IMG/VR virus record: IMGVR_UViG_3300025684_000014
Location: 32,001 to 96,000 of that record
Length of the DNA stretch: 64,000 nucleotides
From: a virus
Direction: 5' to 3' (one strand)
This document shows positions 1,350 to 19,378 of this stretch, piece after piece. Under the pieces are notes generated by a model. The model did not search any database, was not told where the DNA came from, and worked only from the letters and a program-made list of their open reading frames with translations. Position 1 is the first letter of the stretch; each line of letters starts with the position of its first letter. Both the position numbers and the translations under genes were made by a program.

Positions 1350-1964
1350 ATGACTACTATCATCAACACCCTCAATATCCTCTTCGCCCTCATCATCAGC
1401 ACTTCTGTCTTGGCTTGCCCTCCATCACAACAACACCAAAACCTCCCCTCAAACGAGGTAGTAGAAAGTGCAATCATCGACTTCCAAGAAGAGGTCAAAG
1501 CCTTCGAAGTCCTTGGTGATGAATGGGGTCGTTACATGGGGATGATAGAGGAGTTGAACCAACTCCCCATAGTAGACAAAAGAAGAGATAAAGTAACAGA
1601 TCTTTTCATAAAGGTGAATAAGTACACTCTTTTTGGCTACCCAACCCATATCCGCTCCGATAGGAATAGTGCCTTTTATAACGATTTGGTAGCCAAAAAG
1701 TACGGCAGCCAAGTGTCTTTCGGCATTGGTCCGGATGGTTTCATGGGCAAGATTGTACTTGCTCACGAAATCGGTCATAGCTTTGGTTATGGCGAGGCGG
1801 ATGCAGATTATTTTGCCGCGTCTACCGATTACGATATGTGGGATCTAGCAGAGTATTACCTGACTAAAAAAGACCCAACTGATTGGGATTCCTTGGAGAA
1901 GGGCTCCAAGGACTATTTGCCCAATGGCATTAGACTCAGGTTGATGGCGATACCCTTCATGTAG
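1350..1964 (+). CDS. Secreted zinc metallopeptidase-like protein
   Basis: Signal peptide ending SVLA; LAHEIGHSFGYGEADADYFA (HExxH plus downstream E); RBS AAGGAAG. Confidence 0.7.
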   Translation: MTTIINTLNILFALIISTSVLACPPSQQHQNLPSNEVVESAIIDFQEEVKAFEVLGDEWGRYMGMIEELNQLPIVDKRRDKVTDLFIKVNKYTLFGYPTHIRSDRNSAFYNDLVAKKYGSQVSFGIGPDGFMGKIVLAHEIGHSFGYGEADADYFAASTDYDMWDLAEYYLTKKDPTDWDSLEKGSKDYLPNGIRLRLMAIPFM

Positions 1965-1968
1965 TAGT

Positions 1969-2099
1969 AACTCTGGCTCCGGCCCTCTTCGGAGGTGTCT
2001 GGAGCCGAAACTAGACTGACAAGCCCTTAGGGGCTGTCAGGTCAGGTCTTGACAAGCCTGTTTACTAGTCGCGCGGAACGCGCCTGATGAGTCAGAGTT
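1969..2099 (+). ncRNA. Hammerhead ribozyme HH1 (type II topology)
   Basis: C-GAAA (2007-2010), stem III CTAG/CTAG, GTC cleavage triplet (cut after 2070), stem I GCGCG/CGCGC, CTGATGA-G (2084-2091). Flanks AACTCTGG/TCAGAGTT pair. Confidence 0.85.
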
Positions 2100-2159
2100 G
2101 TTTCTACTATCAGCAACCTCGTGTCAGCACAGACATTAAAAGCAGAAAAGGAGCGGCGT

Positions 2160-2669
2160 ATGGCTGCTTTCATCATCAATCTTTTCCAGTTCGCACTGGT
2201 TGTTCTTTTTTCTCTGCCTGTCTTTGGGCAGATGACCGTCTCTGTTGAGACTTCTTACGATGGTATGGCCAATACCACTACAGTTTCTCTCAAGGATGTC
2301 GTCTTGCTCAACATCACAGAGAACCGTGATACTACAGGCATTTGCACTGTCATCTACGCAGAGGGGGATATCCCACCGCATAAGATGGAGGCAATCATGA
2401 GCTTGGAGAACCTGTGCGCAAAATATAACCGCGCGCAAAAGTTGGCTGACGAACTCGCCAAAGAGTTTGGTACGTCTCGTTATCAAGCCCTGAAGGTCGT
2501 CTTAGAGAGCGCCTTTGGGTGGAATGAGCGCTATCAGATCTATCCCACCAAGGGCATTATCTTCGAGGCTAAGAAAATCGCGCGTAAATATCTGCGCTTA
2601 AAGAAGAAGGTTGAGAAAAAGAAAATGAGCAAGCGTCTCATTAGAGATGCACTCGGATCTCGCCGATAA
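2160..2669 (+). CDS. Secreted hypothetical protein
   Basis: ATG 2160 after AAGGAG; signal peptide MAAFIINLFQFALVVLFSLPVFG; basic C-terminus. Confidence 0.7.
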   Translation: MAAFIINLFQFALVVLFSLPVFGQMTVSVETSYDGMANTTTVSLKDVVLLNITENRDTTGICTVIYAEGDIPPHKMEAIMSLENLCAKYNRAQKLADELAKEFGTSRYQALKVVLESAFGWNERYQIYPTKGIIFEAKKIARKYLRLKKKVEKKKMSKRLIRDALGSRR

Positions 2670-2707
2670 CCCTTTGCCTTGAAGAAGGCGTTATAAATAC
2701 TAGCCTC

Positions 2708-2805
2708 GGGGTCGCACTTACCCAAGCGAAACTGGAACTAGTTTAACTAGGTAGAGAATTAGCACACTCTTTTATCCAGTCTAAGGAAGCCTTACTGACG
2801 AGCTT
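2708..2805 (+). ncRNA. Hammerhead ribozyme HH2 (type II topology)
   Basis: AAGC-GAAA (2724-2731), stem III CTGGA/TCCAG, GTC (cut after 2781), stem I TAAGG/CCTTA, CTGACGA-GCTT (2795-2805). Confidence 0.9.
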
Positions 2806-2860
2806 TCATAACCCTTTACTCTTAGCCTCGAGAGTTAAAATATTGCAGGCGGAGATAGCT

Positions 2861-3658
2861 ATGTCTTTCATCATCAACCTCTTCCAGTTCGCCCTCATCA
2901 TCCTTTTCGCACTCTCCGCCTTCGGAGAGGTGGTATGTACCGCCGCTAAGGTGCAGGCCAATGAAGTCTCAATTACTCATGGGTACTACTTGTACCCTGA
3001 GTGCGTTAAGGCGCCAGAACCACCGAAACCTCAACCTAAGGAGGCGAAGCAGGTCATCGACCTCGAAGCCTCAATTAAAGCTTTCCTCAAAGAGGAGTGG
3101 AGGAAGGAGGTTAATTCCACTACCTGGTGGAAAGACCGCGTGGAGGAAAACCCCAAGCGCTTCAAGGAGGTTGAAAAAGCCTTCTTTGCTGTTTGGGGGA
3201 AGTCTCCCCTCGAGCAGCAGAAACTGGCACTCGCACTCTGTCTCGTTGAGACTGGGTGCGGGTTCGGAGAGATGCGCAATTGGCGAGTTCGCGGTAAAAA
3301 GTGGACCCGTCACAAGCGTTTCTTTGAGACGCACAAATTCCTTTCTCGGGCGGGGGCTTGCGGTATCACCCAGGTGGTACCGCAGGTCCTCGGCCTGCGA
3401 TGTGCCGACGCGAACGCCTCTTATCTCGCGGCTTTCAAGCTGCAGAAGAGGTGGCTGGAGGAAAAATGGAATGATGGTATTAAGGGCGGGGCTCGAATCC
3501 ACCTCAAAGACCACAAGGTCTGGCTCACCCCCATCCAGCGTGGCGGCAAGACCACCTACTACCCTTACCGTTACAACGGTGGGGGAAAAAGCGCCTGGAA
3601 TTACGGGCGCAAGTGGAAAGTCGCTTATGATGGGATTGTTCTTATTAAAAAAGAGTGA
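2861..3658 (+). CDS. Secreted lytic transglycosylase (SLT/lysozyme-like)
   Basis: Signal peptide MSFIINLFQFALIILFALSAFG; catalytic LCLVETG, SRAGACGITQV and YNGG motifs. Confidence 0.7.
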   Translation: MSFIINLFQFALIILFALSAFGEVVCTAAKVQANEVSITHGYYLYPECVKAPEPPKPQPKEAKQVIDLEASIKAFLKEEWRKEVNSTTWWKDRVEENPKRFKEVEKAFFAVWGKSPLEQQKLALALCLVETGCGFGEMRNWRVRGKKWTRHKRFFETHKFLSRAGACGITQVVPQVLGLRCADANASYLAAFKLQKRWLEEKWNDGIKGGARIHLKDHKVWLTPIQRGGKTTYYPYRYNGGGKSAWNYGRKWKVAYDGIVLIKKE

Positions 3659-3740
3659 CCCCCATTTTCCCTCGCATACTTTTACCTGAAAGGTAAGGGA
3701 GCGTGAGGGACGACCTAAATAAGTCGTTAAACTGTTTGAA

Positions 3741-3811
3741 AAATCCTAGGGTCTCTTTACCTAGGTCGAAACGCTTTTTTGCGTCGCGGGAAGCCCGCCT
3801 GATGAGTATTT
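3741..3811 (+). ncRNA. Hammerhead ribozyme HH3 (type II topology)
   Basis: C-GAAA (3768-3771), stem III CGC/GCG, GTC (cut after 3785), stem I GCGGG/CCCGC, CTGATGA-G (3799-3806). Confidence 0.88.
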
Positions 3812-4325
3812 ACTATCAGAACTCTTACCATGGTTTTTCTTTATAAGAACTTATCATGGCTAGTTACTAGTACAGAAGTTAATAACAGACGAGGTCTGGC
3901 TTCTTGTGACTGGTACAATTCACACATTCTCTTAGCTAAAACATGCTACAGCTTAGAGTCTTATTGATTGTATGTAAATATTCGTCAACACCCTCCCTCT
4001 GCCAAAAGATTAAATTAACACTGGTTCTGTAACAGAACGAAGCATAGGCAGCGTCACTCGCTAGCCATCCGGGTTTCACGATAAAACAACCCAGGCTCTA
4101 CATACGAGCAAAAAAAAATCGTGGGGTACGCTTCTCCCGTTACATGTAATGGTCCTTAGCCTCCTCTCTGCGCAAGGCAAGACGGCTCCCCAGAACCTAT
4201 TTAATCAGCTTGGACTGTAGTCAGCAGTAATTGACCCGATGGAATGCCTTCCAGGAGGCGCACACAATTTTTTAGAGGACCTGGAATTCCTCTTCTCACT
4301 CACTGGTAAAAGGAGAAATCTTACC

Positions 4326-7300
4326 ATGAGTAATCTTAACAAACCCCGCAAGACGGCGTTTGATCGACTGTCCGCTGAGCAGCAGCTCAACTGGCAGAAG
4401 ATCAGCGTCGCTTGCGAGAACGACGAGGGGTGCACTGCCCCTCTTGCTCGCAAGAGCAAAAAAGTCGTCAAAGTGCCCCGCCCTAAGCGTCGTCAGGCGC
4501 AAAGGGCGGCCAAGCGCGTTGAGCGCCAGAACCGCCTTGAGAGCACCATCAACAACCTCAGCACAACCTCTGAGGGCCCTAGCGCCCTCAAGGCTCTCTT
4601 TGAGGGCCTAATGGTTAGTGTGTTGGTGATCGGAATGGTGATGGGCTTCTTTGCCCTCACCAACGACACCAACACGCAGTCTATCGGCTTCGATAATGGT
4701 GGTGTGTACGCCGTGAACTCTGGGAGCTCCGTGAAGAACGCGGACATCACCAGCCGCCAAGGCGCTGTGAACGCGATTGACACCATCGATCTCGCCCTTG
4801 ACCTCGCTATCAAGCACGCCCCTTCACAGAGCGCTGACCTCGGCGCTTTGGGGCTTCCTCCTCGCAGGAGGAATGACTTTGAGGGTGACGCACCCTTAAA
4901 TCCCATGAAGGGTGATCACCTCCAGAAGTTCTGGAAAAATTATCTGCACGAGCGCGCCATTTTTGAGAGCAAGCAGACCTATGCACGTCGTAAGCGTGCT
5001 TTGATCGCTCGCCTCAAGAGGGCGCAAAAGCAGGCGGCGGCAGCCCACGCCAAGAAGATGAACGCTCACGCGAACATCCTCACCGGCCAGCTCTGCTACC
5101 TCTCGAAGCGCGCCCAAGAGCACAGCGACGAGGATTTGTTGATTCAGGTCAACAAGGCCTTTGAGCTTGCTCAGGCCGCGAAGAGCGAGGAAGAGATCAT
5201 CGACCTGGTCCGTGCTCTCGAGCGTGAGATCAATGGCGACCTCTGGCGCTTTGACAACACCATTTACTTCCAGTACGAGTGTGACGCCCGTCGCTCTGCT
5301 GGTACTTCTGATCAGACGGGCAAAAAGGAGAAAAAGACATTGCGTAAAGCATTTGTCTTTGCAATTAAGCTCATTGCCGCGATGATCATCTTTAAGCTTC
5401 TTCAAGGGTTCTTCCCTGAGGATAGCTTTGGGTTGATCTTCGTTGCTGTGGTCGGCGGGACTGATGTTCCTACCGATTTTGTGGGCGACGATCTTGAGAC
5501 GGTTGCTGAGAAGCTTCAGCCTCACAGCAACCTTGGGCAGGCCCTTGCGTCCATCGAGCGTCGTATGGGGCACTTGCCGATGAGCACCATGACCCTCCTC
5601 CCTGGAGGTGATGGCGCACCAAAGGTCATCTTTAAGACCAACGGGCGCGACAACATCGGCCTTGTGCCCTTCGCTCAGGCGTTTGGTCTCGAGGCTTTGG
5701 GCGAGGACGACGTGCTTCTTATCGAGGCTAATGGCGTTCAGCAGGACGCCATCAACGAGGCTTGCCAGGCGTTCGTCCAAAAGGGCTATCGTCCAGTCGG
5801 TACGCGAATGCTCATTAAGGCGTTCAACGACGATGGGACTAGGGCTCTTGGCGCTGATTATATCGAGGCTATCGACGTCTTCCTTGGCAAAATGGTTGAC
5901 GTCAGGTCTTACTTCAGCCTGGGCAGTGCTCCTGCGCTTAAGACCTTCACCCTCGATGACGACATCTACACCGAGCGCGAGGGCGAGGACGAGGGCCGTA
6001 AGGTCTTGTGGTTCACGGGTAAGGCCAAGCACATTTTTGCCGATCTCGACGGCGTTGAGGGTGGCCTTCCCATCTCCGAGAAGGCAATGGAGGCGATCTT
6101 CGGCTCCAAGAACCCCGGTCAGCCACGCTTGATCGTCAAGCTGTGTGACGGCGTGGCTGCGATGGTCAAGGGTAACTTTGCCCCTATGGCTGTCCGCGCC
6201 TTCTTGCAGGCTGACGGCTCCTGGAAGTTCCTCACCCGTGCTCATTTCGAGAACACCGATGAGGGTAAGGCTGAGTGGCGCAAGGGCTATGACTTCGTCT
6301 TCATCGAGGACGACACGCCCAAGGGCCGTGGGAAAGACCAGCTCAAGACCGAGGATATCAAGCTCTTCGACGCGAATGGTAAGATCTCGGGCTGGCTCAT
6401 CGCTCAGGCCAAGAATGAGCAAGGCAAAAGCTTGGTTTCGTACCAGGTGCTCGCTCTCGTAGCCAAGAGTGCCGGCCTTGATGCAATCGCTGCGCACATG
6501 GAGAGCTTGATCTCTAACAGTGTGCAGAAGAGCGTTGATCAGGTCGAGCGCGATCTTGACAAGCTCGACATCCCTGGTGCTACCGTGAGCGACTTGGAGA
6601 AATTCAAGGAGCTCTTGAGCGCCATCGCACCCGGGTCTGCCCGCCAGACTCGTAAGAACCACCTTGGCTTCGGTGCTGAGGTGTTCACTGGCTACATCCA
6701 CATGAACGTGCTCATTAAGAAGGGCACAATCGTCGTGGGTGATGGCTTCGGCCTCAACAACCGTGCGATGGTCAAGCGCCGCGGCAAGTTTGGTGCAGAG
6801 GATGCTTGCGGCGGTAAGAACCCCATTCTCGACCACCAGCAAACGTGGGTCGGCAAGCTGATCCGCATTGGTGACGTCCAAAAGCTCAGGGAGAGCTTGG
6901 ACAACGGCAAGCCTCTCAGCGACGAAGAGAAGGCTTTTGCTGCTGACTTGTTTGGTGCTGACAAGCTCGATAAGGTCATTTGGATGACCGAGCAGATCAA
7001 GTGGGTTTTGAGCTTCGCTCCTGCGCTCACCCGTGGCTCGATCCTCATGAACGCAGAGGACGTCGCTGACCTTGCGGGTGATGATGACGGGGACCAGCTC
7101 TGGTTCTCGTTCGGAGATGAGCGCATCCTCGAGGTGTTCCGCCTCATCAAAGACCAGGCACAGGGCAATACGCTCTATGCCATTGAGAACAATAAGGGTG
7201 CTCAGCTCCCCTCCGAGACGGGGGCTAGAGACTTTAAAGATCTCTTGACCGCAGAAGGTGACGAGCTTACCGCGCTCTGCCGGTTCATCATGGCTCCTAA

Positions 7301-10300
7301 CAAGGGTCAGGGTCCAGTCGGCTACATGGCCAACATCTGTACCATTCTGATGGCGACCTTCCAAAAGGTTGACAATGGGAATGGCGGGATGGCTTATGAA
7401 AACGATTGGGTTGAGCGCCTTCAAGCCACACTCAACCTCATGCAACAGACGTCAATCGATCTCCAAAAGAGGATCTACTTGACGATCTGCCTCATGAGGT
7501 GGACCAAGGGTGACCTCCGCAAGGAGAAGCTGGACGGTCGTGGTCTTGTGCCTGGGTACGACTTCCCTGGCCTCGCACACGACTTCAACCCGAACGGCTT
7601 CCACCCTGAGAGCTTCAGCTCAGACGAGTACAAGGCAGCCTTGACTCAGGTTGAGATGCCCCACGTCCCAAGCCACTGGGTCTCAGGTGAGAGTTTCCCT
7701 GTTTGCACTGACAACGACAGTCAGTATGCAATCAGGGCGATTGGCTCTTGGTTGATCTGGGAGGTTTTGAGCCTCATTGTCACAGGTAAGCCTGCTGACT
7801 GGGGCGATGTTGCTGATGACGCGAAGGGCGGCCTTGATCCCTGGAGCGTGAGCAGCGAGTTTATCGGTGAGGATGGTCCTGACTTTGAGGCTTTTGCCAA
7901 GAAGTACGCCCTTACCGACGAGCAACATGCTCAGGTTCTCAACGCCTGGCGCAAGAGCCCTTCCGAGCTGTACAGCTGGAAGACGCAAGGCAAGGACGAG
8001 CCATTCGTCCAGAGAGCGCCTGCGGCTCTTGAGCTCAACCATGAGATCGCTATGCGCCTCAAGGAGAGCTACAAGCCCTCTGGCGAGGTGAAGGTTCACT
8101 TCCGCGAGGTTGAGGCCGAGATCAAGCGTCTCTTCTCCACTGACTTTGCTGGACAGGAGTGGCGTGCGCGCAAGTTTGTAGATACCCTCATCGACGGTTT
8201 CTATCTCGAGGCTGCGCTCGCTAACAACAATAAGGCAACCTCAGAGCGATTCCAAAACTCTGAGGAGCGCTCAGGGGTCGAGGCTCTTGGCTATATCCTT
8301 GAGTCGCTTGAGAACAGCTTTACGGCTTCTACAGGGGCTACAAAGGCTGACATCAAGCTGGCTCGTGCTTTTGCGGCTGCTCTCAACCCCCGTGAGCGTC
8401 GCGACAACAAGGCTCGCGAGATCGGTGTCTTCGTGATGCTCATTTCTTGGTGGACGTTAGAGTACGCAAACCAGGAGTGGATCGACCTTATCCAGCGGAA
8501 CATCACTCCTGAGGAGGGGGACAAGACTCCTAAGTACAAGGTCGCGATGGCTAAGTACGGGGTCGACGAGGCAACCGCCAAGAAGATGGTGAATGCCAAG
8601 CACTCAAAGACGATTGCGCCTGAGCTCCTCAAGTTCATCAAGGGACTCGTCAATGAGCACTTCTCGGTTAACGCTGAGAAGATGGAGGCTAAGGCCACCT
8701 GGCTCGTCGATGATGCTCTGAGCGCAGCCGTCAAGGCGATCGAGAACACAGAGATCGTGATGGCTAAGCGTGACGTCCTCAAGGAGGTCAAAGAGGCGAC
8801 CATCCGCTGGACCGACATGCGTGACAGTTGGGACCAGCGTCGTGTTGCTGTTGAGATCCTCCTCGCGGCTACAGGCTGGTTTGAGGCTTCGTGGTTTGAG
8901 GCTATGAAGGACGAGCTCAAGATGATGGCTTCCCAGACTACCAAGACTGTGGGTCAAATCCGTAAAGAGCTCAAAAACGCTGCTCCCGACGCTGACGTCG
9001 CGGCTCTCAAGACTGAGCTCAAGGTTGCATCAAAGGCTTCTTCTGCAAAGAAGTTGCTTGCGATGCTGGCTGATGATAGCCTCGGCTATGTCACTATCCT
9101 CAACGCGCTCTGTAACCCAAAGCAGAATCCTCTTGCGCGTGAGTTTGTCACCACAATGCTCGACAACAGCGGTCCTATCGTGAACGTTGAGCGTGCGTGG
9201 CAACGTGCGGATGATCTCGGCTGTGACAAGTCTGACGTCCGCGACTGGACCTGGGAGCTCGGTGACTGGGTGACTCACAAGGGCAAAGGCACCGACCCCA
9301 ACACGGGGATGCCACGTCAGAACAAGACAGTACTCTACGCGCACTCACGCGTCGAGTGGTCTTTGACTGACACGGCCACTGCACGCTTTACGCGTATTCT
9401 TCTCGAGGGTGGTGTGAGCATTTACAAGCTCACCAAGGTGCCTGCTCAGAGCTTCAAGACCTGGCGTTACTTTGACGCTTTCGTCTATGAGGCAGAGCGT
9501 ACGCCCGATTACTCCCTGGTCCATGGTGTCGGTCACCTCGTCAGCCTTGCTATCCCTACCCAAAAGCAGGCCGACGAAGAGCGTTACCGCCGCATGGCTC
9601 ACCTCGGTCACCTCGAGTGGGCTTGCCAAGCGTGGACTGATGTCGACCCCACGCTTAGCCAGGCAGACGTGCGCTATCACGTTGAGGGTCTCCGTGAGGA
9701 GATTGATCGCGTCGAGGCTCTCAAGGACAACGCCCTCATGGTGAGCTGGGGTCACCTGCTTAGTCCTATTACTTGGGGCATGCAGATCCATAGCTGGGCT
9801 GGCAAGCTGACCAAGAAGGCCATTAACGGTCGTGCTTGGGCTGCACTTGCACAGCTTGGCAAACGCGACCCCGCCTACCACGACCAGCCCAAGGTCAACA
9901 ACCTCGGGGCTGAGATCGTGACCACCGAGCTCAAGGCCCTTAACTCCAATGGCAACCACATGCCATTCAAGCGCAACTTTGGTCCTCGTAACCAAAGCCA
10001 GGCTCTTCAAAGGGCTAAGCGCATGGCGGGCAAGAACGAGGGTGAGCTTGACGACACCACCGACCTTGTGCCCTTCACCTTCGGTGATGACGAGAACACC
10101 CAGCACACTTACGCTGAGTGGCTCGACTTTATCGAGGGTGTAGCCGCCAACGGCACTGGTCCTGCTAGCGCTATGGTCCTGGCAGGCCTCTGGTACGGTG
10201 CTCATGGTGGGCGTATTGCCGCTCTGGATCCCAACGGCTCAATCTTCTCCAAGGAGATTGCTGAGAAGATCCAAAAGCGTCTCTTGCGCTGCCCCGCCTA

Positions 10301-10427
10301 CGAGGTTCGCCTCCACATTGAGGACCTCCTCAAGGGCGAGTACGTCGCTCCTGTTAGCAAGCCAACTGACAAAGAGAGCGCGGAGGCCTTCTTCGCCGTG
10401 CTTCGCCGTAAGGCTGGCCTCGCTTAA
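4326..10427 (+). CDS. Single-subunit two-barrel RNA polymerase, YonO / cellular RdRP-like, with an N-terminal membrane-containing extension
   Basis: ATG 4326 after AAGGAGA. Motifs in the expected order: DGVEGGLPISE, QPRL..VKG, GKNPILDH (6816), DLAGDDDGD (DxDGD at 7080-7094), VGYMANICT, QTSIDLQK. Confidence 0.8.
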   Translation: MSNLNKPRKTAFDRLSAEQQLNWQKISVACENDEGCTAPLARKSKKVVKVPRPKRRQAQRAAKRVERQNRLESTINNLSTTSEGPSALKALFEGLMVSVLVIGMVMGFFALTNDTNTQSIGFDNGGVYAVNSGSSVKNADITSRQGAVNAIDTIDLALDLAIKHAPSQSADLGALGLPPRRRNDFEGDAPLNPMKGDHLQKFWKNYLHERAIFESKQTYARRKRALIARLKRAQKQAAAAHAKKMNAHANILTGQLCYLSKRAQEHSDEDLLIQVNKAFELAQAAKSEEEIIDLVRALEREINGDLWRFDNTIYFQYECDARRSAGTSDQTGKKEKKTLRKAFVFAIKLIAAMIIFKLLQGFFPEDSFGLIFVAVVGGTDVPTDFVGDDLETVAEKLQPHSNLGQALASIERRMGHLPMSTMTLLPGGDGAPKVIFKTNGRDNIGLVPFAQAFGLEALGEDDVLLIEANGVQQDAINEACQAFVQKGYRPVGTRMLIKAFNDDGTRALGADYIEAIDVFLGKMVDVRSYFSLGSAPALKTFTLDDDIYTEREGEDEGRKVLWFTGKAKHIFADLDGVEGGLPISEKAMEAIFGSKNPGQPRLIVKLCDGVAAMVKGNFAPMAVRAFLQADGSWKFLTRAHFENTDEGKAEWRKGYDFVFIEDDTPKGRGKDQLKTEDIKLFDANGKISGWLIAQAKNEQGKSLVSYQVLALVAKSAGLDAIAAHMESLISNSVQKSVDQVERDLDKLDIPGATVSDLEKFKELLSAIAPGSARQTRKNHLGFGAEVFTGYIHMNVLIKKGTIVVGDGFGLNNRAMVKRRGKFGAEDACGGKNPILDHQQTWVGKLIRIGDVQKLRESLDNGKPLSDEEKAFAADLFGADKLDKVIWMTEQIKWVLSFAPALTRGSILMNAEDVADLAGDDDGDQLWFSFGDERILEVFRLIKDQAQGNTLYAIENNKGAQLPSETGARDFKDLLTAEGDELTALCRFIMAPNKGQGPVGYMANICTILMATFQKVDNGNGGMAYENDWVERLQATLNLMQQTSIDLQKRIYLTICLMRWTKGDLRKEKLDGRGLVPGYDFPGLAHDFNPNGFHPESFSSDEYKAALTQVEMPHVPSHWVSGESFPVCTDNDSQYAIRAIGSWLIWEVLSLIVTGKPADWGDVADDAKGGLDPWSVSSEFIGEDGPDFEAFAKKYALTDEQHAQVLNAWRKSPSELYSWKTQGKDEPFVQRAPAALELNHEIAMRLKESYKPSGEVKVHFREVEAEIKRLFSTDFAGQEWRARKFVDTLIDGFYLEAALANNNKATSERFQNSEERSGVEALGYILESLENSFTASTGATKADIKLARAFAAALNPRERRDNKAREIGVFVMLISWWTLEYANQEWIDLIQRNITPEEGDKTPKYKVAMAKYGVDEATAKKMVNAKHSKTIAPELLKFIKGLVNEHFSVNAEKMEAKATWLVDDALSAAVKAIENTEIVMAKRDVLKEVKEATIRWTDMRDSWDQRRVAVEILLAATGWFEASWFEAMKDELKMMASQTTKTVGQIRKELKNAAPDADVAALKTELKVASKASSAKKLLAMLADDSLGYVTILNALCNPKQNPLAREFVTTMLDNSGPIVNVERAWQRADDLGCDKSDVRDWTWELGDWVTHKGKGTDPNTGMPRQNKTVLYAHSRVEWSLTDTATARFTRILLEGGVSIYKLTKVPAQSFKTWRYFDAFVYEAERTPDYSLVHGVGHLVSLAIPTQKQADEERYRRMAHLGHLEWACQAWTDVDPTLSQADVRYHVEGLREEIDRVEALKDNALMVSWGHLLSPITWGMQIHSWAGKLTKKAINGRAWAALAQLGKRDPAYHDQPKVNNLGAEIVTTELKALNSNGNHMPFKRNFGPRNQSQALQRAKRMAGKNEGELDDTTDLVPFTFGDDENTQHTYAEWLDFIEGVAANGTGPASAMVLAGLWYGAHGGRIAALDPNGSIFSKEIAEKIQKRLLRCPAYEVRLHIEDLLKGEYVAPVSKPTDKESAEAFFAVLRRKAGLA

Positions 10428-10502
10428 TTAATAATCCTGGCGTGATGCACTATCCAAATATCTAGCCGTCTTTTTCGGTGAGATAAGTGTGTTGCGTCAG
10501 GG

Positions 10503-10566
10503 CGTGTCAGGTCGGAGCAATTCTGCCGAGATCTCTGATGAGTATGTCTCAGGACAACGAAACACG
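10503..10566 (+). ncRNA. Hammerhead ribozyme HH4 (type III)
   Basis: CGTG-TC (cut after 10508), stem I AGGTC/GATCT, CTGATGA (10535-10541), stem II GT..TGTC/GACA..AC, GAAA-CACG. Confidence 0.88.
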
Positions 10567-10604
10567 AATCAGCAGCTCAAAATACATTCATAAGGAGAAT
10601 AAAA

Positions 10605-11096
10605 TTGAGCGATTTCGATAAGCTCCTTGCCGCCCTCATGGCGGGGGGTTCGACTGTCAACGTGACCGTAATCAACGCGGTACACCCTGGCGGTGTAGTC
10701 AACATCAAGAACGGGTGCGTTGATGTTGAAAAGTCTAATGCACCCACCCCTAAGAAGGCTCAGGGGGAGAAGAAGAGCCAGGAGGAGCCACTCCACGATG
10801 ACCACACCTCTGCAGCTGAGGATGCTGTTGGTGGGGGTGACGAGGCTCCAATCGACACCACCCCCGCTGAGCGGAATCGCGGTGGTGGTACTCCAGAGGG
10901 GTCACCGCTCCTCGCTCAGGTGAAGGGCAAGCTCCTCGCCTTGAGTGAGGAATTGACGAACAGGGTTGTCAGCCATATCGATCGCATCAGCTCGCTGAGC
11001 AAGGACGATCTCGAGAAGATCGCTGCGATTGAGGACAGTGACCTCGACAACCTCGACGAGATCCTCGACAACCTCTTTCCTGACCTTGCTTCTTAA
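10605..11096 (+). CDS. Acidic low-complexity hypothetical protein
   Basis: TTG start after AAGGAG; codon usage like the polymerase gene. Confidence 0.65.
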   Translation: MSDFDKLLAALMAGGSTVNVTVINAVHPGGVVNIKNGCVDVEKSNAPTPKKAQGEKKSQEEPLHDDHTSAAEDAVGGGDEAPIDTTPAERNRGGGTPEGSPLLAQVKGKLLALSEELTNRVVSHIDRISSLSKDDLEKIAAIEDSDLDNLDEILDNLFPDLAS

Positions 11097-11251
11097 ACAA
11101 GGTTAACTTTAAACTCATCATACACTATCACTCCTAAATCATTATAATATGGTGATAACGACTCCGCCAAACTCCGCCAAGCGGAGCTTGGCACCCCTGT
11201 CGGGGTGAGGAAATGGAGGGCTCTGCCCCCCAAACCCCCCGTGTTGTAGGG

Positions 11252-11714
11252 GTGAGGTGATGTATGGTGAAAGGAAATCAGTATGTCTGACACAACTTTC
11301 GACCCAAAGTTGCTCTGTTTTATTTCCCCCTCGGGGGAGTTTCAAGCACTAGCTCCTCTGATCGCACTTGTGCGTGATGAGCAGCTCGTTTTCCAGGCAA
11401 ACCGGCCTCTTTTGGAGGGGTTCGGGTGCCAAAGCGATGAGCAGACCAAGCAGGGATTCGACTTTCTCAAGTCAATCTCTCTCTCGTCCACTTTTAATTC
11501 ATGGGCGAATGAGGAAGAGGGGTCCTCCGGGATTTCGTCTAAGTCACTGGTCGCGTCGGCAACGACGCCCGGTGCAATCCTGACCCTCGTGGGCCTTCTA
11601 AGGAGTCATCCTGACGCTTCGGCGTCAGGAACCTTGACCGTCAACTACGCCAACCCCGCGCGCCGCGCAGGGGTGGGGCGTCCCCGCTAACTAAACCCCC
11701 ATACATCACCTCAC
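11252..11714. repeat. Perfect 16-bp inverted repeat bracketing ORF 11283-11690
   Basis: GTGAGGTGATGTATGG (11252-11267) and CCATACATCACCTCAC (11699-11714). Confidence 0.9.
11283..11690 (+). CDS. Hypothetical protein enclosed by a 16-bp inverted repeat
   Basis: RBS AAGGAAA, 135 aa. Confidence 0.6.
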   Translation: MSDTTFDPKLLCFISPSGEFQALAPLIALVRDEQLVFQANRPLLEGFGCQSDEQTKQGFDFLKSISLSSTFNSWANEEEGSSGISSKSLVASATTPGAILTLVGLLRSHPDASASGTLTVNYANPARRAGVGRPR

Positions 11715-11829
11715 ACCGCTTAGCGCGTTCTTTTCCGTAAGGAGACGAGACGCTGAGTGGCACCTCTTTGAGTAGAGGGGCGTAGGATAAGCGTTAAAAG
11801 CGTAATCCTTGGTCGCCTAGACCTAAACT

Positions 11830-11900
11830 CGTCCCCCTAAAGCAGAGTAAAATCTGTGGATGGGGCTGATGTGGCTCTTTCGGGAGCCGAAACGCATCAG
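11830..11900 (+). ncRNA. Variant hammerhead-like element HH5 (type III, CUGAUGU core)
   Basis: CG-TC, stem I CCCC/GGGG, CTGATGT (A9U), stem II GGCTCT-TTCG-GGAGCC, GAAA-CG. Stem III is very short. Confidence 0.5.
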
Positions 11901-13270
11901 TAGTCACCGTTGATGACTTTAAACTCAACCCCTGTGAGTTAGGGCAAAATACTTGCTACCTTTAGGGGTAGCGCCTCAGTGTGTGTGGGTGAACCACCAT
12001 CGCACATAGAAGGAAGCAGTGTAGGTACTGTGACCTGATGAGGTAAAAACGGTTGGCAACCATGTTGCTGGGCACCTATGCCTCACACTAGCTATCCTAC
12101 AATAGCTAAGAGAAAAATAGGGAGGTTAAATCACCTCGGTCTTTTTTAAAGGTTGAAGAATGGGGTTAGCGATTATAGACATGATCGTGAAGCTCAATGC
12201 GCTATGAAGGGAACATAGTAGCGCGACTCGTTGTGAGTATAAAAACCGAAAGCGGAAATCCTAGGTATCCGTAAGTAGAAGAAGAATGTCTCAGGTTGTT
12301 GAAACTGACCTGGATTACTTTGGATTGATCCCCAAAGAATTAAATAGTCAGCGGCTAGCATAGTATGCCGCGATCTTGGATTGGAACCCCAAGATCAAGG
12401 AGTTGCTTGTAACTTCATCACTACCTTATAAGGGGCAATTCTGGAAGCTTTTCCAGAGCTGATAGATTGTCTTTTATAGGGTAGGCATCACAAGATCGAC
12501 ATTGTTGGGCACGGCAATGTTTAAAGATTAGCAACTATTAGTTGTTATAGTGTCCTGCCGTAGACCGATTACTGTAGAGTAATCATCATAGGCGGGGTAG
12601 GGACGGTATCTGTGGATACTATAACCCTTCAATTTTATGCCCCTTCAGACTGGCTACTTCTTCGTAGTTAGGGGACAGGCAATGCACTTTAGTGTAGCAG
12701 AGGCCAGTCAGCCGGTGATAGGTATGCCGGTGGTGATTTTGAGGTTAATCGTACTCAAACTCAAGAACCAAGACACCTGCGGGGACATAACTCCCTTTGA
12801 TCGTTGACCAGGCGATCAGCTATCTACGGATAGGCACATTGGGCGACTGCAGGCATGTAGTCTAGAAGTGAATGCTAAGTACATCCCTCACACACGAAAG
12901 AAGGTCGTCATGACTGGTATCGTGGAGTGTACATCAGGCTTCCGCGTCTTTTGGCGCGGTTGCCTGATCGGTGCGTTTGCCTCTTTTGAGGTGGCGCACC
13001 GTGAGCTCCTCTCTATCTCAGAGTAAAATCTGAGTAGGGAGTGAGCTTCTCCTGAGCATGACGTTAAAAGGCTCAACATGCTTTGGCTGACAGTATCGAC
13101 TGTTGACTCGAGCAAAATAGTGTCTCTTTTAGAGAGGAGATGCTATTTAGTCTTACGGCTCTTTATTTAAGGAGACGTTAAGGCAAGCCCTTTTATCAGG
13201 GTATAGGTTATAGGTGAGACACCGAGCCTAGTAGAATATATATTCTATGAAGTTACGTTTAGTAACAAAA
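11900..13270 (+). ncRNA. Large, highly structured non-coding RNA region (unidentified)
   Basis: No credible ORF; near-continuous hairpins; long-range stem TATCCGTA (~12266) / TACGGATA (~12825). Confidence 0.6.
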
Positions 13271-13274
13271 AAGT

Positions 13275-13467
13275 TCACCATGGCAGGGTAAGTAAAAGCC
13301 CGGTGAGGAAGGTAAGCTTCTTAATATGTCATTTATGGCCACCAAGGTTGGTGCCAGAGGGTTCTAGAGTCCACTACGTGCGAAGTTACAGCTAGTACGC
13401 AGTGAACTCATTCAAAGAGACTGTAATCTCTTTGCTCTGGTAGCCGGTTCAATCCCGGCATGGTTAT
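13275..13467 (+). ncRNA. tRNA-like RNA with expanded interior
   Basis: Acceptor-like ACCAT/ATGGT, D-like GGGT/GCCC, canonical T arm GCCGG-TTCAATC-CCGGC. Internal stem TGCCAGAG/CTCTGGTA holds a hairpin with loop CTGTAA. Confidence 0.5.
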
Positions 13468-13474
13468 TTAACGC

Positions 13475-13590
13475 ACCCCGTAGCTGGGGTCGAAACACAG
13501 TCTTTCTCGGATGTAGGAGAGAGTTAATAGGAGTCGCGTACCTATTGTTAAAACTGTGTCGGGCTAGCTTAGGCCCCTGAAGAGAACCAG
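13475..13590 (+). ncRNA. Hammerhead ribozyme HH6 (type II topology)
   Basis: C-GAAA (13492-13495), stem III CACAG/CTGTG, GTC (cut after 13560), stem I GGGC/GCCC, CTGAAGA-G (13577-13584). Confidence 0.88.
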
Positions 13591-13636
13591 ACATCCCGCC
13601 TTACTTCAGCCTCGTTGCATATAAAGGAGAAATACT

Positions 13637-14005
13637 ATGCAATTCCTTAACATCTCTAACCACCCCGTAGAGGGTTGGTCAGCGTCACAGCGCGAGGCGG
13701 CCCTCGCGCTCGCTCCTGAGGCTGACTTGCTCGATGTTGATTTTCCAACCCTCGACCCTCAGTGGTCGAGGGTAAAGGTCAAGGTGAAAGCGATCGAGTT
13801 TATAGACGATCTCGACCCTCGGCCTGGCGCGAGGGCAATGGTAGCGGGTGAGGAGCCTATAATGTGTTTCTACCTCGTGCGTGAACTCCAGGCACTCGGG
13901 GTGGCCTGCTACAGCGCGACCACTGAGCGCGTGGTCGAGGAGCGCGACGGTGTAAAAACCTCGCGCTTCTCATTTGTGCGCTTTCGTGAGTGGCCTGCTC
14001 TCTAA
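13637..14005 (+). CDS. Csx20-like CRISPR-associated protein homolog; candidate ring nuclease
   Basis: SNHPxxxWxxxQ, FPxxDP, GE, ATTER and KTSRFSFVRFREW match small type III CRISPR ancillary proteins; RBS AAGGAG. Confidence 0.7.
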   Translation: MQFLNISNHPVEGWSASQREAALALAPEADLLDVDFPTLDPQWSRVKVKVKAIEFIDDLDPRPGARAMVAGEEPIMCFYLVRELQALGVACYSATTERVVEERDGVKTSRFSFVRFREWPAL

Positions 14006-14044
14006 GAGTTAGGTCGCTCCGGGCAGAGTAAACTGCCATAAAAA

Positions 14045-14268
14045 ATCCAGGTAATGTTATTCACCTGCTCTTACAATAAGAGAAAAGAAATAACAAACTT
14101 CTTTGAGGAGACGAGACTCGAAGAGACCGCTAAGGTAATGTAGCGGTATATAAATAACGAGGCGTCACCCCCAATAAGTCTAATAGGCAGGGGGAACTAC
14201 ATCCACGCCTACATCGGAACAACATAAGAAGCTTAGGAATTTCTTATGCCGTGAGCATTATCTGGGAT
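14045..14268 (+). ncRNA. Structured ncRNA candidate (~225 nt)
   Basis: Ends pair (ATCCAGGTAATGTT / AGCATTATCTGGGAT) and enclose several hairpins; ends 6 nt before a tRNA-like gene. Confidence 0.5.
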
Positions 14269-14274
14269 GATTAG

Positions 14275-14439
14275 GCAGGGTTAGCTCAGTGATAGAGCGC
14301 TAGCAGCCAACCGTCTGTTGTAAAGAAAGTCAAGCCTAGGAAACTTGATAAGTAATTACAATGGGTTAAGGTAAACATACGAGCTTCCTATCGTATGGGC
14401 AACATGCTAGAAGCGTTGGTTTGATTCCAGCACCCTGCA
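14275..14439 (+). tRNA. tRNA-like RNA with a ~99-nt structured insert replacing the anticodon loop
   Basis: Acceptor GCAGGGT/ACCCTGC-A, D arm TAGCTCAGTGATAGAGC, anticodon stem CTAGCA/TGCTAG, T arm GTTGG-TTTGATT-CCAGC; insert 14306-14404. Confidence 0.75.
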
Positions 14440-14549
14440 GCAGCCAAGAATGTATGAAGCCTCCACGTGGCTCTTGGCGGAAATGGCAATCATTGAAGTG
14501 ATTGCGTCAGCTAATATCATACACAAACCATTAAAAAGGAGAAAAAGAC

Positions 14550-14678
14550 ATGTGTATCTGTTGTCATCAGTACACTGTCAGATGGTGGAAAATCCGCCGT
14601 CTGACAGCAAGCACTGTGCTTTACGGAGCACAGTGCGATACTTGTGGCGCTGACTGGGAAGAAACAGTCAAAGAGTAA
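14550..14678 (+). CDS. 42-aa zinc-finger microprotein
   Basis: Strong RBS AAGGAGA; MCICCHQ...CDTCGADW. Confidence 0.6.
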   Translation: MCICCHQYTVRWWKIRRLTASTVLYGAQCDTCGADWEETVKE

Positions 14679-14867
14679 TAGCGCCGCAACCCCTAGAGAA
14701 TCCAAAAAGCTTGATTCCAGAGCGTATGAATTGGGTACTCTAGGGGGTAAACACTTTTCTTACACCAAACTCAAATTTGAGAAAACCTCGATTCCAAAGC
14801 GTAAAGAGACATTTTAGTCAAAAGTCGCGGCGGAAGAAAAATTCTCAGGATTAAAAGGATCAAAAAA

Positions 14868-15152
14868 ATGAGAAAGCCTAAGAAAATAATAAGCTTTTGT
14901 GAGTATCACGAAAAGTTCAATTGTGAGGAGTGTGAGGGGCTCCTCTTTGCTACCTTCGAGGAGGTGGCGAAAAGGTACGGTGACTTTGATGTCACCTACC
15001 GTAATGGAGTATTGGAGGGGGTGTGGATTAAGAGCTGGAGCGAGTTTACTTGCTCCAGCTTTAAGAACCACTACAAAGGAGGGTGGGTCATTATAGAGCC
15101 CGGGGCATGGGCTTGGGAGGTTAGGAAAGTGCGCGTGGAGGCGCACGACTGA
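14868..15152 (+). CDS. Hypothetical protein (Cys/His motif)
   Basis: RBS AAGGA; CEYH...CEEC. Confidence 0.6.
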   Translation: MRKPKKIISFCEYHEKFNCEECEGLLFATFEEVAKRYGDFDVTYRNGVLEGVWIKSWSEFTCSSFKNHYKGGWVIIEPGAWAWEVRKVRVEAHD

Positions 15153-15463
15153 TGGGTGGCGCCATGTGCTTAGCAATCTCAGTCATCTCCCTCGTGTGGG
15201 GAGGGATGCACTTGGGATGGGGTGATTGGTATGTGGCGCCGTTTCTTCTTGTCTTTTTAACTCCTTCTCTTTACGAAGAGACACTGTTGAAAGGATACGA
15301 GGAGACGGCAAGGATACACGTAGACAACGCATGGTACATCTTCACGTATCGTGCAGTACTGTTTTGTATTCTATGTGTATTCTACATCCCATGGATCTTA
15401 GTAAGTGACATTGCAAAAGACTCATGGGAATATCTCGAGGAGACTTTTTCTCCTAATCTTTAA
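15152..15463 (+). CDS. Hypothetical membrane protein
   Basis: Start overlaps the previous stop; hydrophobic segments. Confidence 0.5.
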   Translation: MGGAMCLAISVISLVWGGMHLGWGDWYVAPFLLVFLTPSLYEETLLKGYEETARIHVDNAWYIFTYRAVLFCILCVFYIPWILVSDIAKDSWEYLEETFSPNL

Positions 15464-15535
15464 ACTTTTTTTAACTTTTTTTGTTTCAGACTTGAAACAT
15501 CAGCAAGTAATCTGTAAATAATAAGGAAAAATATA

Positions 15536-15961
15536 ATGAGTAACGAGACTACATCTTCAACCCTTTCTCAAACCCTTTCTTCAAACCCTTCTCAGACCCT
15601 TTCACACAAGACAGTTCAGCAAGCACATCAAGCTCTGTTTGACAGCCTTCCTGAGAGTCTTCGCAAGTACTTGCAGATTCATGCGTTTACTTCAAAGGTC
15701 TCTTGCATTAAGCTTCAGAAGGGAGCGTTCCGCAGTTTCATGGCGGAAGGCGGCCGTATTCTCAAGACAGATAACTTCGAGATTATTTGTCAAGATGCAG
15801 TTAATACGATCTTGAATCACGTTGTTTCACAAGATGCAACAATGCGTGTTGATGCACGACACCTTTACAACGATTACCTGGGTATTCACGTATACCTTGG
15901 TACTAACAACGTAGATGATCTCATTAAGTGGATCGCCGCTCAGAATGGTGGTAATCAATGA
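15536..15961 (+). CDS. Hypothetical protein
   Basis: RBS AAGGA; operon-like packing. Confidence 0.65.
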   Translation: MSNETTSSTLSQTLSSNPSQTLSHKTVQQAHQALFDSLPESLRKYLQIHAFTSKVSCIKLQKGAFRSFMAEGGRILKTDNFEIICQDAVNTILNHVVSQDATMRVDARHLYNDYLGIHVYLGTNNVDDLIKWIAAQNGGNQ

Positions 15962-16287
15962 GTAGCGAATCTTTAAGAGAGAATGTTTACAAGACAGCAC
16001 TTAGAGACTTACAAGATCTACCTTCTTGGGGTAGAATCGTACTGGCTTTTCTAGTGTTGTTTGTTATTGTGAAATGGACGCCTATTTTTGATTTGTTATA
16101 CCTGGCGTTCATGATTGTTTTAGTACCAACAGCATTTCTTATTTGTTTAGCATTATTTTCTATGGATACTTTTAATATGTTTCTCAGTACAGTTAATATG
16201 ATTGCTGAGAGTATTAAGCAAGGTATCAGGGAGAATAATCAGGATGCGCCGGCTGATCAGCAAGTTGATCAAGAGGAGCAGGCTTAA
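15958..16287 (+). CDS. Hypothetical membrane protein
   Basis: Two TM segments; ATGA overlap. Confidence 0.65.
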   Translation: MSSESLRENVYKTALRDLQDLPSWGRIVLAFLVLFVIVKWTPIFDLLYLAFMIVLVPTAFLICLALFSMDTFNMFLSTVNMIAESIKQGIRENNQDAPADQQVDQEEQA

Positions 16288-17072: not shown

Positions 17073-17146
<74 letters not shown>

Positions 17147-17231
17147 CTCCCCGCACCCTATTTTTCAAAGAAAGTTAAATAGGCAAAAGTCAAAAAAGCT
17201 CCTCAAAACTTTTTAACTCGTGCGGGATTTT

Positions 17232-17304
17232 GGGCAGTTAGCCAAGAGGTTAAGGCACCGGTCTCATAAACCGGCGATCCTGGGTTCAACCCCCAGACTG
17301 CCCA
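17232..17304 (+). tRNA. tRNA-Met/Ile2(CAT)
   Basis: Cloverleaf; CCGGT-CTCATAA-ACCGG. Confidence 0.92.
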
Positions 17305-17310
17305 CTTCAT

Positions 17311-17392
17311 GCCATCATGGTGGAATAGGTAGACACAGGGGACTTAAAATCCCCCGACTTATGTCGTGCGGGTTCGATCCCCGCTGATGGTA
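17311..17392 (+). tRNA. tRNA-Leu(TAA)
   Basis: Cloverleaf with long variable arm; GGGGA-CTTAAAA-TCCCC. Confidence 0.95.
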
Positions 17393-17419
17393 TTTCTTAA
17401 ACTGTAAAAAAGAGGTAAA

Positions 17420-17680
17420 ATGCTTAACAAATATAGCAACATGAATGTGTATATTGATGAGAAAACCTTCAATAAATACTTCGAAAACCCAGTAATAATG
17501 CAAGAAGTAACAACCTGGTCAAGTTTATCATGTTGTTACCTAATTGTGCAAAACGAAACAAGTGCGCAAAACCTCAAGTTCAACAAAAAAGTAATCAGTA
17601 CCGACTTAAGGGTTAGAGCTGTTATTGCTAAAAACCTTAAAAATATGACTTACTACACCCCTGTAATCTTAACAAAGTAA
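17420..17680 (+). CDS. Hypothetical protein
   Basis: Leader GTAAAAAAGAGGTAAAA-ATG, repeated almost exactly before 17694. Confidence 0.6.
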   Translation: MLNKYSNMNVYIDEKTFNKYFENPVIMQEVTTWSSLSCCYLIVQNETSAQNLKFNKKVISTDLRVRAVIAKNLKNMTYYTPVILTK

Positions 17681-17693
17681 AAAAGAGGTAAAA

Positions 17694-19377: not shown

Positions 19378-19378
19378 G

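Follow-up and report, generated by a model that had tools for sequence, protein, structure and literature searches.

What use would a tailed phage have for a protein of 2033 amino acids (aa) that carries the catalytic motif of an RNA polymerase behind a series of hydrophobic segments? The question is raised by a giant open reading frame (ORF) in a 64,000-nucleotide stretch of DNA, here called the window, from the IMG/VR record IMGVR_UViG_3300025684_000014 (Table 1). The record is that of a tailed phage and carries a sheath gene. On the predicted structure of its core, the protein is a single-chain two-barrel (double-psi beta-barrel, DPBB) RNA polymerase of the clade of QDE-1/RDR, YonO, crAss gp66 and P23-45 gp64/gp96. 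With a probability of about 0.5, we propose that it is a membrane-tethered, DNA-dependent phage transcriptase that is made early and then transcribes the rest of the genome.

The ORF that an initial annotation of this DNA had outlined is real: it runs in a single frame, and its start coincides with the database start, M30 of a longer open frame that begins at an upstream ATG. Translation of the frame, LAGDDDGDQLWF, puts the catalytic DDDGD at residues 948–952 of the longer product (P0001), nucleotides 7080–7094, exactly where it had been placed. GDDDGD is invariant in all 28 aligned relatives, and the 16 distant giant relatives all carry the motif as D[SNA]DGD, in keeping with the DxDxD metal-binding triad of two-barrel polymerases. 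When residues 500–1300 were used to query 5.8 billion clustered proteins, 32 homologues of 1640–2033 aa with 42–100% identity emerged among 8000 scored candidates. Because of these homologues, together with the relatives encoded in 11 metagenome contigs or loci (numbered with an L below), the giant ORF is not a chance frame. An 849-aa antisense frame (4896–7445, minus strand) also has 'homologues' elsewhere, which are the antisense of the same giant gene; it is most likely a by-product of GC-rich codon usage and no gene.

The two-barrel assignment is made because the model of the core matches RDR2, QDE-1, gp64/gp96 and gp66. AlphaFold, with the relatives as alignment, models residues 400–1330 of the 2033-aa product (P0002; window 5523–8315) with a mean predicted local distance difference test (pLDDT) score of 84.2 and a predicted template modelling (pTM) score of 0.80. 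Foldseek finds 26 PDB chains at E ≤ 0.001, all of them single-chain two-barrel polymerases, the best being QDE-1 (E 1.2e-9), RDR2, P74 gp62/P32 gp64 and crAss phi14:2 gp66 (1.1e-6); the match to QDE-1 is the outcome of the very comparison that the initial annotation had suggested. VIA aligns the whole core with two-barrel polymerases at Z 13.2–9.7 across 370–540 residues. Neurospora QDE-1 and plant RDR2 match best (Z 13.2–10.5, 480–540 aligned, same barrel order), with maize RDR2 (ZmRDR2) at 13.2 (496 aligned, root-mean-square deviation 5.4) and QDE-1 at 11.3 (522 aligned). P23-45 gp64 and P74-26 gp62 reach 11.3/11.2 (438–439 aligned; 438 for gp64), P23-45 gp96 reaches 10.1 (378 aligned), and crAss gp66 gives a much weaker match than gp64, QDE-1 or RDR2, at 6.5 (548 aligned). 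Among predicted viral structures, the core is matched best by a 1290-aa protein, uncharacterised, from an uncultured tailed phage (E 2.8e-17); crAss-like fragments and P23-45 gp64 come next.

The barrels can be placed within this model. DDDGD occupies model residues 520–524, inside the second, beta-prime-like barrel, and the p97 N domain, a double-psi barrel that stands alone, matches the stretch around it over 81 residues (model residues 388–534, Z 6.3), so that the barrel whose absence around DDDGD would have refuted the initial annotation is indeed found there. The catalytic barrel region of Rpb1 and beta-prime aligns with model residues 384–555 at Z of about 5. The first barrel region, presumed beta-like from its order and from the whole-chain alignments, holds the invariant residues R202, K216, R225, R239 and K267 (model numbering); of these, K216, R225, R239 and K267 are candidates for the two basic residues that the other barrel contributes in enzymes of this kind. 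Two helices (596–612 and 628–644) come after an invariant APNKGQGPVG, beyond the catalytic barrel, where a bridge helix and a trigger loop would be looked for, and the polymerase fold extends to about residue 1260–1310 of P0002. The annotation had read the motif series of cellular RNA-dependent RNA polymerases and YonO from the letters; this series is borne out at the level of fold by AlphaFold, Foldseek and VIA and not by sequence, for which Pfam, PHROG and the PDB give no match.

The giant protein finds 0 Pfam families and 0 PHROGs at E ≤ 1 and 0 PDB chains by sequence at E ≤ 10, and a profile of 28 relatives retrieves from the PDB only low-complexity or chance rows (best E 0.078). Zero Pfam domains are found in the 32 homologues, for which the source names read only 'hypothetical protein'. 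A tblastn search of 50,697 deposited phage records gave no match, hence no cultured relative, and relatives were found neither in IMG/VR nor in 185,579 species genomes. A core profile searched against 1.84 billion representatives recovered 22 proteins (5 family clusters, one 76-aa fragment and 16 distant relatives); all 21 full-length matches measure 1676–2329 aa, and no short stand-alone form turned up. Five of the distant relatives, when scanned, gave 0 PHROG matches, and nothing informative was retrieved from the PDB with the distant giants P0034 and P0044. A polymerase family thus escapes sequence searches of Pfam, PHROGs and the PDB and is absent from the deposited phage genomes, yet its DNA recurs in sequencing runs. 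Near-identical words of window 1–10000 occur in 24 DNA runs from 18 studies, labelled mostly marine, estuary or seawater, and 6 of the 24 runs contain at least half of the sampled words, one of them possibly being the source of the DNA; in 12 of the 24 the share is small.

Ahead of the core lies a region that the family has hardly conserved: the first ~400 columns of the alignment of 28 relatives are nearly unconserved, and conservation runs from 'PHSNLG' to the protein end. Hydropathy was scored there and elsewhere as the Kyte–Doolittle (KD) mean of 19-residue windows (strict threshold KD ≥ 1.6, loose threshold 1.2) in 48 full-length relatives. Both hydrophobic segments noted in the initial annotation are recovered in the window protein, with mean values of 2.27 and 2.09; six lysine or arginine (K/R) residues fall in the 15 residues preceding segment 2, which together with a third segment possibly forms a helical hairpin. 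Across the family, a KD ≥ 1.6 segment precedes the core in 33/48 relatives and lies within the first 40 aa in 28/48, two or more being present in 14/48; the density of such segments is 4.3 per 1000 aa before the core vs 0.16 after it, a difference of about 27-fold. At the threshold of 1.2, 41/48 and 26/48 relatives are counted and the densities become 7.0 before and 1.6 after the core. Hydrophobicity reaches 2.0–2.7 over 19 residues. The segments lie outside the folded core, in the region that is poorly conserved in sequence; their position is conserved and their sequence is not, and they are therefore anchor-like. Hydropathy and conserved position support membrane-type segments ahead of the core as a trait of the family.

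The place of segment 1 varies within the family. In the window protein it begins at residue 94, owing to an extra basic N-terminal stretch; in the close relatives P0003–P0005, in which ~70 N-terminal codons are absent, it occupies residues 7–25, and in a strain variant the contigs of two other runs skip 4333–4550 and so put it at the protein start. Ten of the 16 distant relatives start with a signal-like 'MRN + hydrophobic' stretch. Segment 2 is often preceded by 4–8 K/R, and any third segment is then followed by 2–5 K/R. Such charge counts would be compatible with a membrane hairpin whose two flanks, and with them the polymerase, face the cytoplasm.

The time at which the protein is made is suggested by codon usage. 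Two codon dialects occur in one phage genome, and the GC-rich block that holds the polymerase gene avoids exactly the codons of the phage's own tRNAs. The block begins at a divergent switch (window ~1020–1350) with a GC step of about 25 points, from a GC of about 0.31 outside, and declines gradually on its right side. At third codon positions, GC (GC3) amounts to 0.69 for the giant ORF and 0.65 for nine genes of the block, vs 0.19 for 99 other genes; at second positions (GC2) it is nearly level (0.40 vs 0.34). For AGA, UUA, AUA, GGA and ACA, the share of the respective codon family is 3, 2, 0, 4 and 10% in the giant ORF, as against 58, 42, 32, 33 and 34% in the 99 other genes; these five codons are decoded by the phage tRNAs Arg-TCT, Leu-TAA, Ile-TAT, Gly-TCC and Thr-TGT, which are accompanied by Met and Asn tRNAs. 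The block avoids phage-tRNA codons and is therefore written for reading without phage tRNAs. The step is kept, in smaller form, in L007, L008 and L010, whose polymerases have ~35% identity (GC3 0.45–0.48 vs 0.18–0.26). It is probable from these codons that the block is translated before phage tRNAs exist and that its genes are the earliest.

At the edge of this block, two overlapping near-consensus sigma-70-type promoters on the minus strand (1046–1093; TTGATA-17-TATAAT, and TTTACT-17-TATAAT with TG) face the leftward terminase/structural arm, and no comparable site points toward the GC-rich block. A phage promoter motif was not found among exact repeated 10–12-mers, which gave AT-rich noise only.

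A tethered transcriptase made early would act as follows. The polymerase would be held at the host inner membrane with its catalytic part in the cytoplasm. The block, comprising the polymerase, an SLT-like transglycosylase and small N-terminally anchored proteins, would be translated first, on host tRNAs alone, because its codons avoid those of the phage tRNAs. Transcription of the rest of the genome, which is AT-rich, would then be the task of the polymerase, and a hammerhead ribozyme would cut the block transcripts just behind the polymerase gene. We read the giant protein as the phage's own transcriptase because the 124-kb record, from which about a fifth of the genome is missing, yielded neither a further polymerase nor a sigma factor: it contains no Rpb1_2, no sigma70_r2 and no second core copy, and a T7-type search was uninformative, its control being silent. 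The codon island, its place at the head of the rightward array and the Sec- and lipoprotein-like leaders of the neighbouring proteins argue that the module is early.

Several observations weigh against this account. A strong hydrophobic segment is missing from 15/48 relatives, some of which may have wrong start calls; several N-terminal segments resemble cleavable signal peptides, which taken literally would imply protein export; the membrane character of the N-terminal region is read from Kyte–Doolittle windows only. On timing, there is no RNA run among the 24 runs that contain DNA of window 1–10000, and at the block head 19 sigma-70-like promoters were found vs 21.6 expected from shuffles, the best sites facing leftward. 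Lastly, the tripartite plan, the giant size and the neighbours with hydrophobic leaders are likewise the design of the ejected virion polymerase of N4 and DEV (PMC13434306, PMC11445570), the genes of which are not early.

The alternative suggested by that likeness is a real possibility, though short of a likely one: a polymerase packaged in the virion, ejected with the DNA and lodged in the inner membrane as part of an ejectosome, from where it would transcribe the first genes during entry, as in the model for N4 gp50, DEV gp71, crAss gp66 and P23-45 gp96. On this view, the envelope would be breached by proteins ejected together with the polymerase, namely the SLT-like neighbour and the small anchored proteins. 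It is in keeping with this that all of the full-length profile matches are giant (non-virion gp64 measures about 600 aa), and all giant phage polymerases known to us are virion proteins. The neighbours with N-terminal hydrophobic helices, one of them SLT-like, the abutment of the module on the terminase/portal/capsid arm and the lack of sigma-70 promoter enrichment at the block head point the same way. DEV gp71 is moreover described with transmembrane helices N-terminal of its core and a helical C-terminal part (PMC11445570). However, a late virion gene would be expected to use the late codon set and the phage tRNAs, and the module differs in its codons from all of the structural genes that were recognised (capsid, portal, sheath and terminase, GC3 0.18–0.36 vs 0.65–0.69 in the block). 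The gene also heads the rightward array, on the strand opposite to the structural arm, and its cysteine content is not depleted (0.8% vs 0.9% in other genes), unlike that of DEV gp71 and N4 gp50, which are described as devoid of cysteine. The signal- and lipoprotein-like leaders of the neighbours would be more easily reconciled with proteins exported from the cytoplasm than with proteins brought in by a capsid.

The transcriptase made early could also be combined with entry itself. In such a scheme, which we consider improbable, the GC-rich block would enter and be expressed first, with the tRNA genes and the AT-rich bulk still outside, and the membrane-inserted polymerase, beside the entry site and together with the anchored transglycosylase, would reel in the remaining ~100 kb. 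If true, the scheme would amount to the two-step entry of T7 and T5 in a form encoded by the phage itself and fixed to the membrane, and would explain the two codon dialects. The coupling of entry and transcription, raised in the initial annotation, would belong either with this scheme or with the ejected polymerase; it is a reasonable model by analogy and is not new, precedents having been described for P23-45 gp96 (PMC10770324, legend of Fig. 5) and for N4 gp50/DEV gp71 (PMC13434306, PMC11445570).

Hydropathy and the conserved position of the segments before the core support the membrane-type segments from which the initial annotation proposed a tether, and the weak point of the tether is that the same segments could be buried helices of an N-terminal domain, or packaging or targeting leaders that a protease removes, leaving a soluble polymerase. 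We regard this as unlikely. Hydrophobic leaders are indeed common to four consecutive proteins, with paralogous DNA encoding two of these leaders, which could represent a common targeting signal, and the relatives that lack a strong segment are compatible with a soluble enzyme. Yet the conservation of position and not of sequence, the hydrophobicity that the segments attain and an enrichment confined to the region before the core are at odds with it, as are the K/R clusters, which flank the segments as in membrane proteins.

A DNA template is assumed throughout, and the top Z scores, those of RDR2 and QDE-1, might instead suggest an RNA-dependent enzyme that takes RNA of the phage or the host as its template and serves, for instance, in transcript amplification or the production of double-stranded RNA; QDE-1 itself has both DNA- and RNA-dependent activity (PMC9508822). 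This is very unlikely, as the DNA-dependent gp64 and gp96 score within 2–3 Z units of RDR2, the context is a double-stranded DNA tailed phage in which no other polymerase was found, and the phage members for which the accounts report assays, YonO (PMC5467207) and those of P23-45 (PMC10770324), are all DNA-dependent. An origin of the GC-rich block by chimeric assembly or by recent insertion of foreign DNA, as the sharp GC step and the start of contigs of three other runs at the block edge (1308–1329) might suggest, is scarcely credible, given that in the independent contigs L007, L008 and L010 (35% identity) the module is linked to the same leftward genes (1276 aa and 242 aa) with a smaller GC step, that GC declines gradually on the right, and that contigs from four other runs (four studies) span window 1–20000 entirely, in all 30 bins.

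How does the protein compare with described enzymes? Its kind is known: phage single-chain two-barrel polymerases exist, are sometimes giant and may act at the entry site. To our knowledge, phage two-barrel polymerases are few. The structures of YonO, crAss gp66 and P23-45 gp64/gp96 each changed ideas on the origin of cellular polymerases and RNA-silencing enzymes. The Thermus phage enzymes (gp64, which is not a virion protein; gp96, a virion protein fused to the tape measure; and gp62) share the single-chain two-barrel architecture and have zero sequence similarity to the giant ORF. In P23-45 gp96, as here, the polymerase sits in a giant protein, for which a role at the pore of DNA entry is proposed (PMC10770324); in gp96, however, it forms the N-terminus of a 5002-aa tape measure, whereas in the giant ORF it is central, between N-terminal hydrophobic helices and a 750-aa C-terminal region, and the phage that carries the giant ORF is marine and has a sheath. 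crAss phi14:2 gp66 (PDB 6vr4) is likewise a giant (~2,200 aa) single-chain two-barrel enzyme; its motif is given as DFDxD in place of DDDGD, and the words 'hydrophobic' and 'transmembrane' have 0 occurrences in the main text of the preprint, which mentions no N-terminal membrane-type segments. QDE-1 and RDR2 differ in being eukaryotic RNA-silencing enzymes with 10–12% identity, no membrane segments and a different biological setting. YonO of the Bacillus prophage SPbeta, which we set beside the giant ORF by description only, is also a phage single-chain relative of multisubunit polymerases; it is DNA-dependent, about 100 kDa and soluble as described (PMC5467207).

The closest likeness of plan is to N4 gp50 and DEV gp71, which share with the giant ORF a membrane-type N-terminal region (known here by hydropathy only), a polymerase core and a large helical C-terminal region (PMC13434306, PMC11445570). 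Their N-terminal domain is described as 'likely membrane-spanning', with a proposed anchoring in the inner membrane after ejection, and their operon neighbours or small ejection proteins as having N-terminal transmembrane helices (PMC13434306, PMC11445570). The core of the Schitoviridae virion polymerase is T7-like and that of the giant ORF two-barrel, which makes this a likeness of design and not of descent. A two-barrel core joined to the 'anchor, polymerase, large tail' plan of an unrelated T7-like enzyme points to a convergent solution for transcription at the membrane. What appears to be new is a family without detectable sequence tie to the described ones, with N-terminal membrane-type anchors on a two-barrel core as a predicted family trait, together with its conserved C-terminal region, a conserved SLT-like partner, a codon island matched to the phage tRNA set and a conserved hammerhead behind the gene. 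Searches of the literature turned up no account of a protein like it, although the 23 polymerase family alignments of PMC10770324 may already include the family. The codon split and the ribozyme offer testable handles on expression timing and RNA processing in an uncultured phage group.

This ribozyme lies 75 nucleotides (nt) past the stop codon of the giant ORF. It was detected with Rfam Hammerhead_3 at 24.8 bits, under the gathering threshold of 48.5, which no locus reached; the comparison of copies identifies it by covariation as a hammerhead of type III, predicted to be self-cleaving. In four diverged copies the core (CUGAUGA, GAAA and a GUH cleavage triplet) is invariant (4/4), with three stems of which stem III is open. 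All 19 pairs form (75/75 cells) and 9 are changed on both sides, vs 28–56% paired and 0–2 double-changed pairs in controls with slid partners; compensatory changes occur in all three stems. A family-specific model (R1) scores 36–91 bits in 9 places. Of the 10 sources that extend beyond the polymerase gene, 9 have the hammerhead: 60–100 nt past the stop in the window and in L002, L003, L004, L005, L007, L008 and L010, and 1.4 kb past it in L006; L012 is without one. In L007, L008 and L010, U replaces the last A of CUGAUGA, and their activity is uncertain for this reason. A second, weaker candidate follows the 135-aa gene (19.5 bits, E 0.0065; core CUGAUGU), with matching copies in L002, L003 and L005, which makes four sources with the window. 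Hammerheads that flank phage genes have been described and read as devices for processing long transcripts (PMC3088659).

Other RNA-like elements were seen in the block. One occurs in two copies, at 1995–2095 and 3760–3830 (repeat 2068–2092 and 3783–3807), and consists of GAAAC, a stem, GUC, a 5-bp hairpin and then CUGAUGAGU. The 5-bp hairpin has a compensatory change between the copies and the order of the core is that of a type II hammerhead; a convincing stem II was not found, and Rfam gives only an 18.1-bit Hammerhead_3 match, in the second copy. Weak matches to the F. prausnitzii HDV-like (hepatitis delta virus-like) ribozyme (12639–12708, 29.4 bits; 14443–14521, 24.1 bits; gathering threshold 44) fall in ORF-poor stretches of the block. 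A stretch of about 2 kb (11700–13630) has tiny ORFs only; contigs of three runs have 51 other letters instead of 11895–12639, part of it thus being a strain-variable insert.

The region behind the core is, as had been noted, unrecognised; its length, put initially at ~900 aa, was slightly overestimated and comes to about 730–770 aa. An alignment of 10 sequences, with 58 invariant columns, shows it to be conserved. Its model is mostly helical at mediocre confidence (pLDDT 63.8), and a new fold is not claimed. Foldseek gave 0 PDB matches at E ≤ 0.001, the best hit in a wide VIA search was to helical hairpins (Z 6.3 over 47 residues), and an Atlas structure search gave no usable match. A stretch of ~80 residues is weakly common to one distant relative (hhalign probability 67%), and a second relative shares nothing.

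The neighbours of the polymerase gene are conserved as well. A homologue of the 271-aa protein precedes it in L005, L007, L008, L009 and L010, and a homologue of the 135-aa protein follows it in L002, L003, L005, L006 and L012. The 271-aa protein has the invariant stretches ETGCGF, ACGxTQV and YRYNGG, and the series ETG...CGxTQV...YRYNGG resembles SLT motifs. It has 0 Pfam families at E ≤ 0.01 and 0 matches in a PDB profile search; all 10 Atlas matches listed are SLT-domain or lytic/murein-transglycosylase clusters, below the bar for naming (TM-score 0.37–0.43 by query, up to 0.67 by row). The protein probably cleaves peptidoglycan and is probably anchored in the membrane. Four consecutive proteins of the module start with N-terminal hydrophobic leaders, and the gene of the 204-aa HExxH protein is missing from some strain variants (1337–1971). 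Synteny of the module is conserved in L007, L008 and L010, which also keep beside it the genes of a 1276-aa protein with an endonuclease-like stretch (phrog_452; record 28471–32301, window −3529 to 301, minus strand) and of an adjoining 242-aa protein.

Table 1 Coordinates of the features discussed. Positions are those of the window unless a locus is given; P0001 and P0002 are the products of the longer and shorter giant frames.
Feature	Position	Strand	Remarks
Window	bases 32001-96000 of record		linear virus record, 123,667 bases, estimated 79% complete
Giant ORF	4326..10427	+	2033 aa (P0002), database start M30
Open frame of giant ORF from ATG 4239	4239..10427	+	2062 aa (P0001)
Hydrophobic segment 1	4605..4661	+	P0001 123-141, KD 2.27
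Hydrophobic segments 2 and 3	5349..5483	+	P0002 342-360 (= P0001 371-389), KD 2.09; P0002 368-386, KD 1.49
Two-barrel RNA polymerase core (predicted)	5559..8096	+	residues 13-858 of the model of window 5523-8315
First beta-rich barrel region, presumed beta-like DPBB	6060..6431	+	model ~180-303
Second barrel, beta-prime-like DPBB	6675..7124	+	model 385-534, holds DDDGD
Conserved C-terminal region, mostly helical	8226..10424	+	about 750 aa
GC-rich, host-codon-type block	1350..16000	+	GC 0.45-0.58, GC3 0.65; fades by about 20000
204-aa protein	1350..1964	+	signal/lipoprotein-like N-terminus, HExxH; Reprolysin_3 E 0.0015, below cut-off
182-aa protein	2121..2669	+	hydrophobic leader, paralogous to that of the 271-aa protein at DNA level (repeat D2)
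271-aa protein	2843..3658	+	N-terminal hydrophobic leader and SLT-like (lytic transglycosylase) domain; conserved upstream neighbour
135-aa protein	11283..11690	+	conserved downstream neighbour
Type III hammerhead ribozyme (predicted)	10502..10567	+	behind giant-ORF stop codon
Second, weaker hammerhead candidate	11827..11897	+	after 135-aa gene
Hammerhead copies	L002:5695-5760, L003:9367-9431, L004:9544-9609, L005:6670-6735		
Hammerhead copies	L006:7376-7442, L007:12188-12250, L008:10717-10780, L010:9839-9902		
tRNA genes Arg-TCT, Met-CAT, Leu-TAA, Ile-TAT	17073..19010	+	downstream edge of block
tRNA genes Thr-TGT, Gly-TCC, Asn-GTT	28975-29401		

The rest of the record is in keeping with a tailed phage distant from those deposited. 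Megablast of 20 kb of the window gave no match, and the terminase has 23–29% identity to deposited phages, with Moorella phage MTATph1 as the top match. Matches in the leftward arm are to large terminase, portal, major head and tail-sheath proteins, and those in the rightward part to ribonucleotide reductase, pieces of a DnaE-type polymerase, a primase-helicase, an AAA ATPase, a PurA/PurZ-like synthetase and tail-fibre-like proteins; the window has 7 tRNA genes and one group I intron. At 21605–23890, an adenylosuccinate-synthetase-like gene, matching a PHROG named for a PurZ-type enzyme, adjoins a gene of the fumarate-lyase family (PurB-like). The DnaE-type polymerase gene is split into at least three separated pieces (55433–60303 and 73164–74426; profile positions 32–443, 441–675 and 790–1055), and the group I intron (59005–59327) lies in this region, beside an ORF on the opposite strand.

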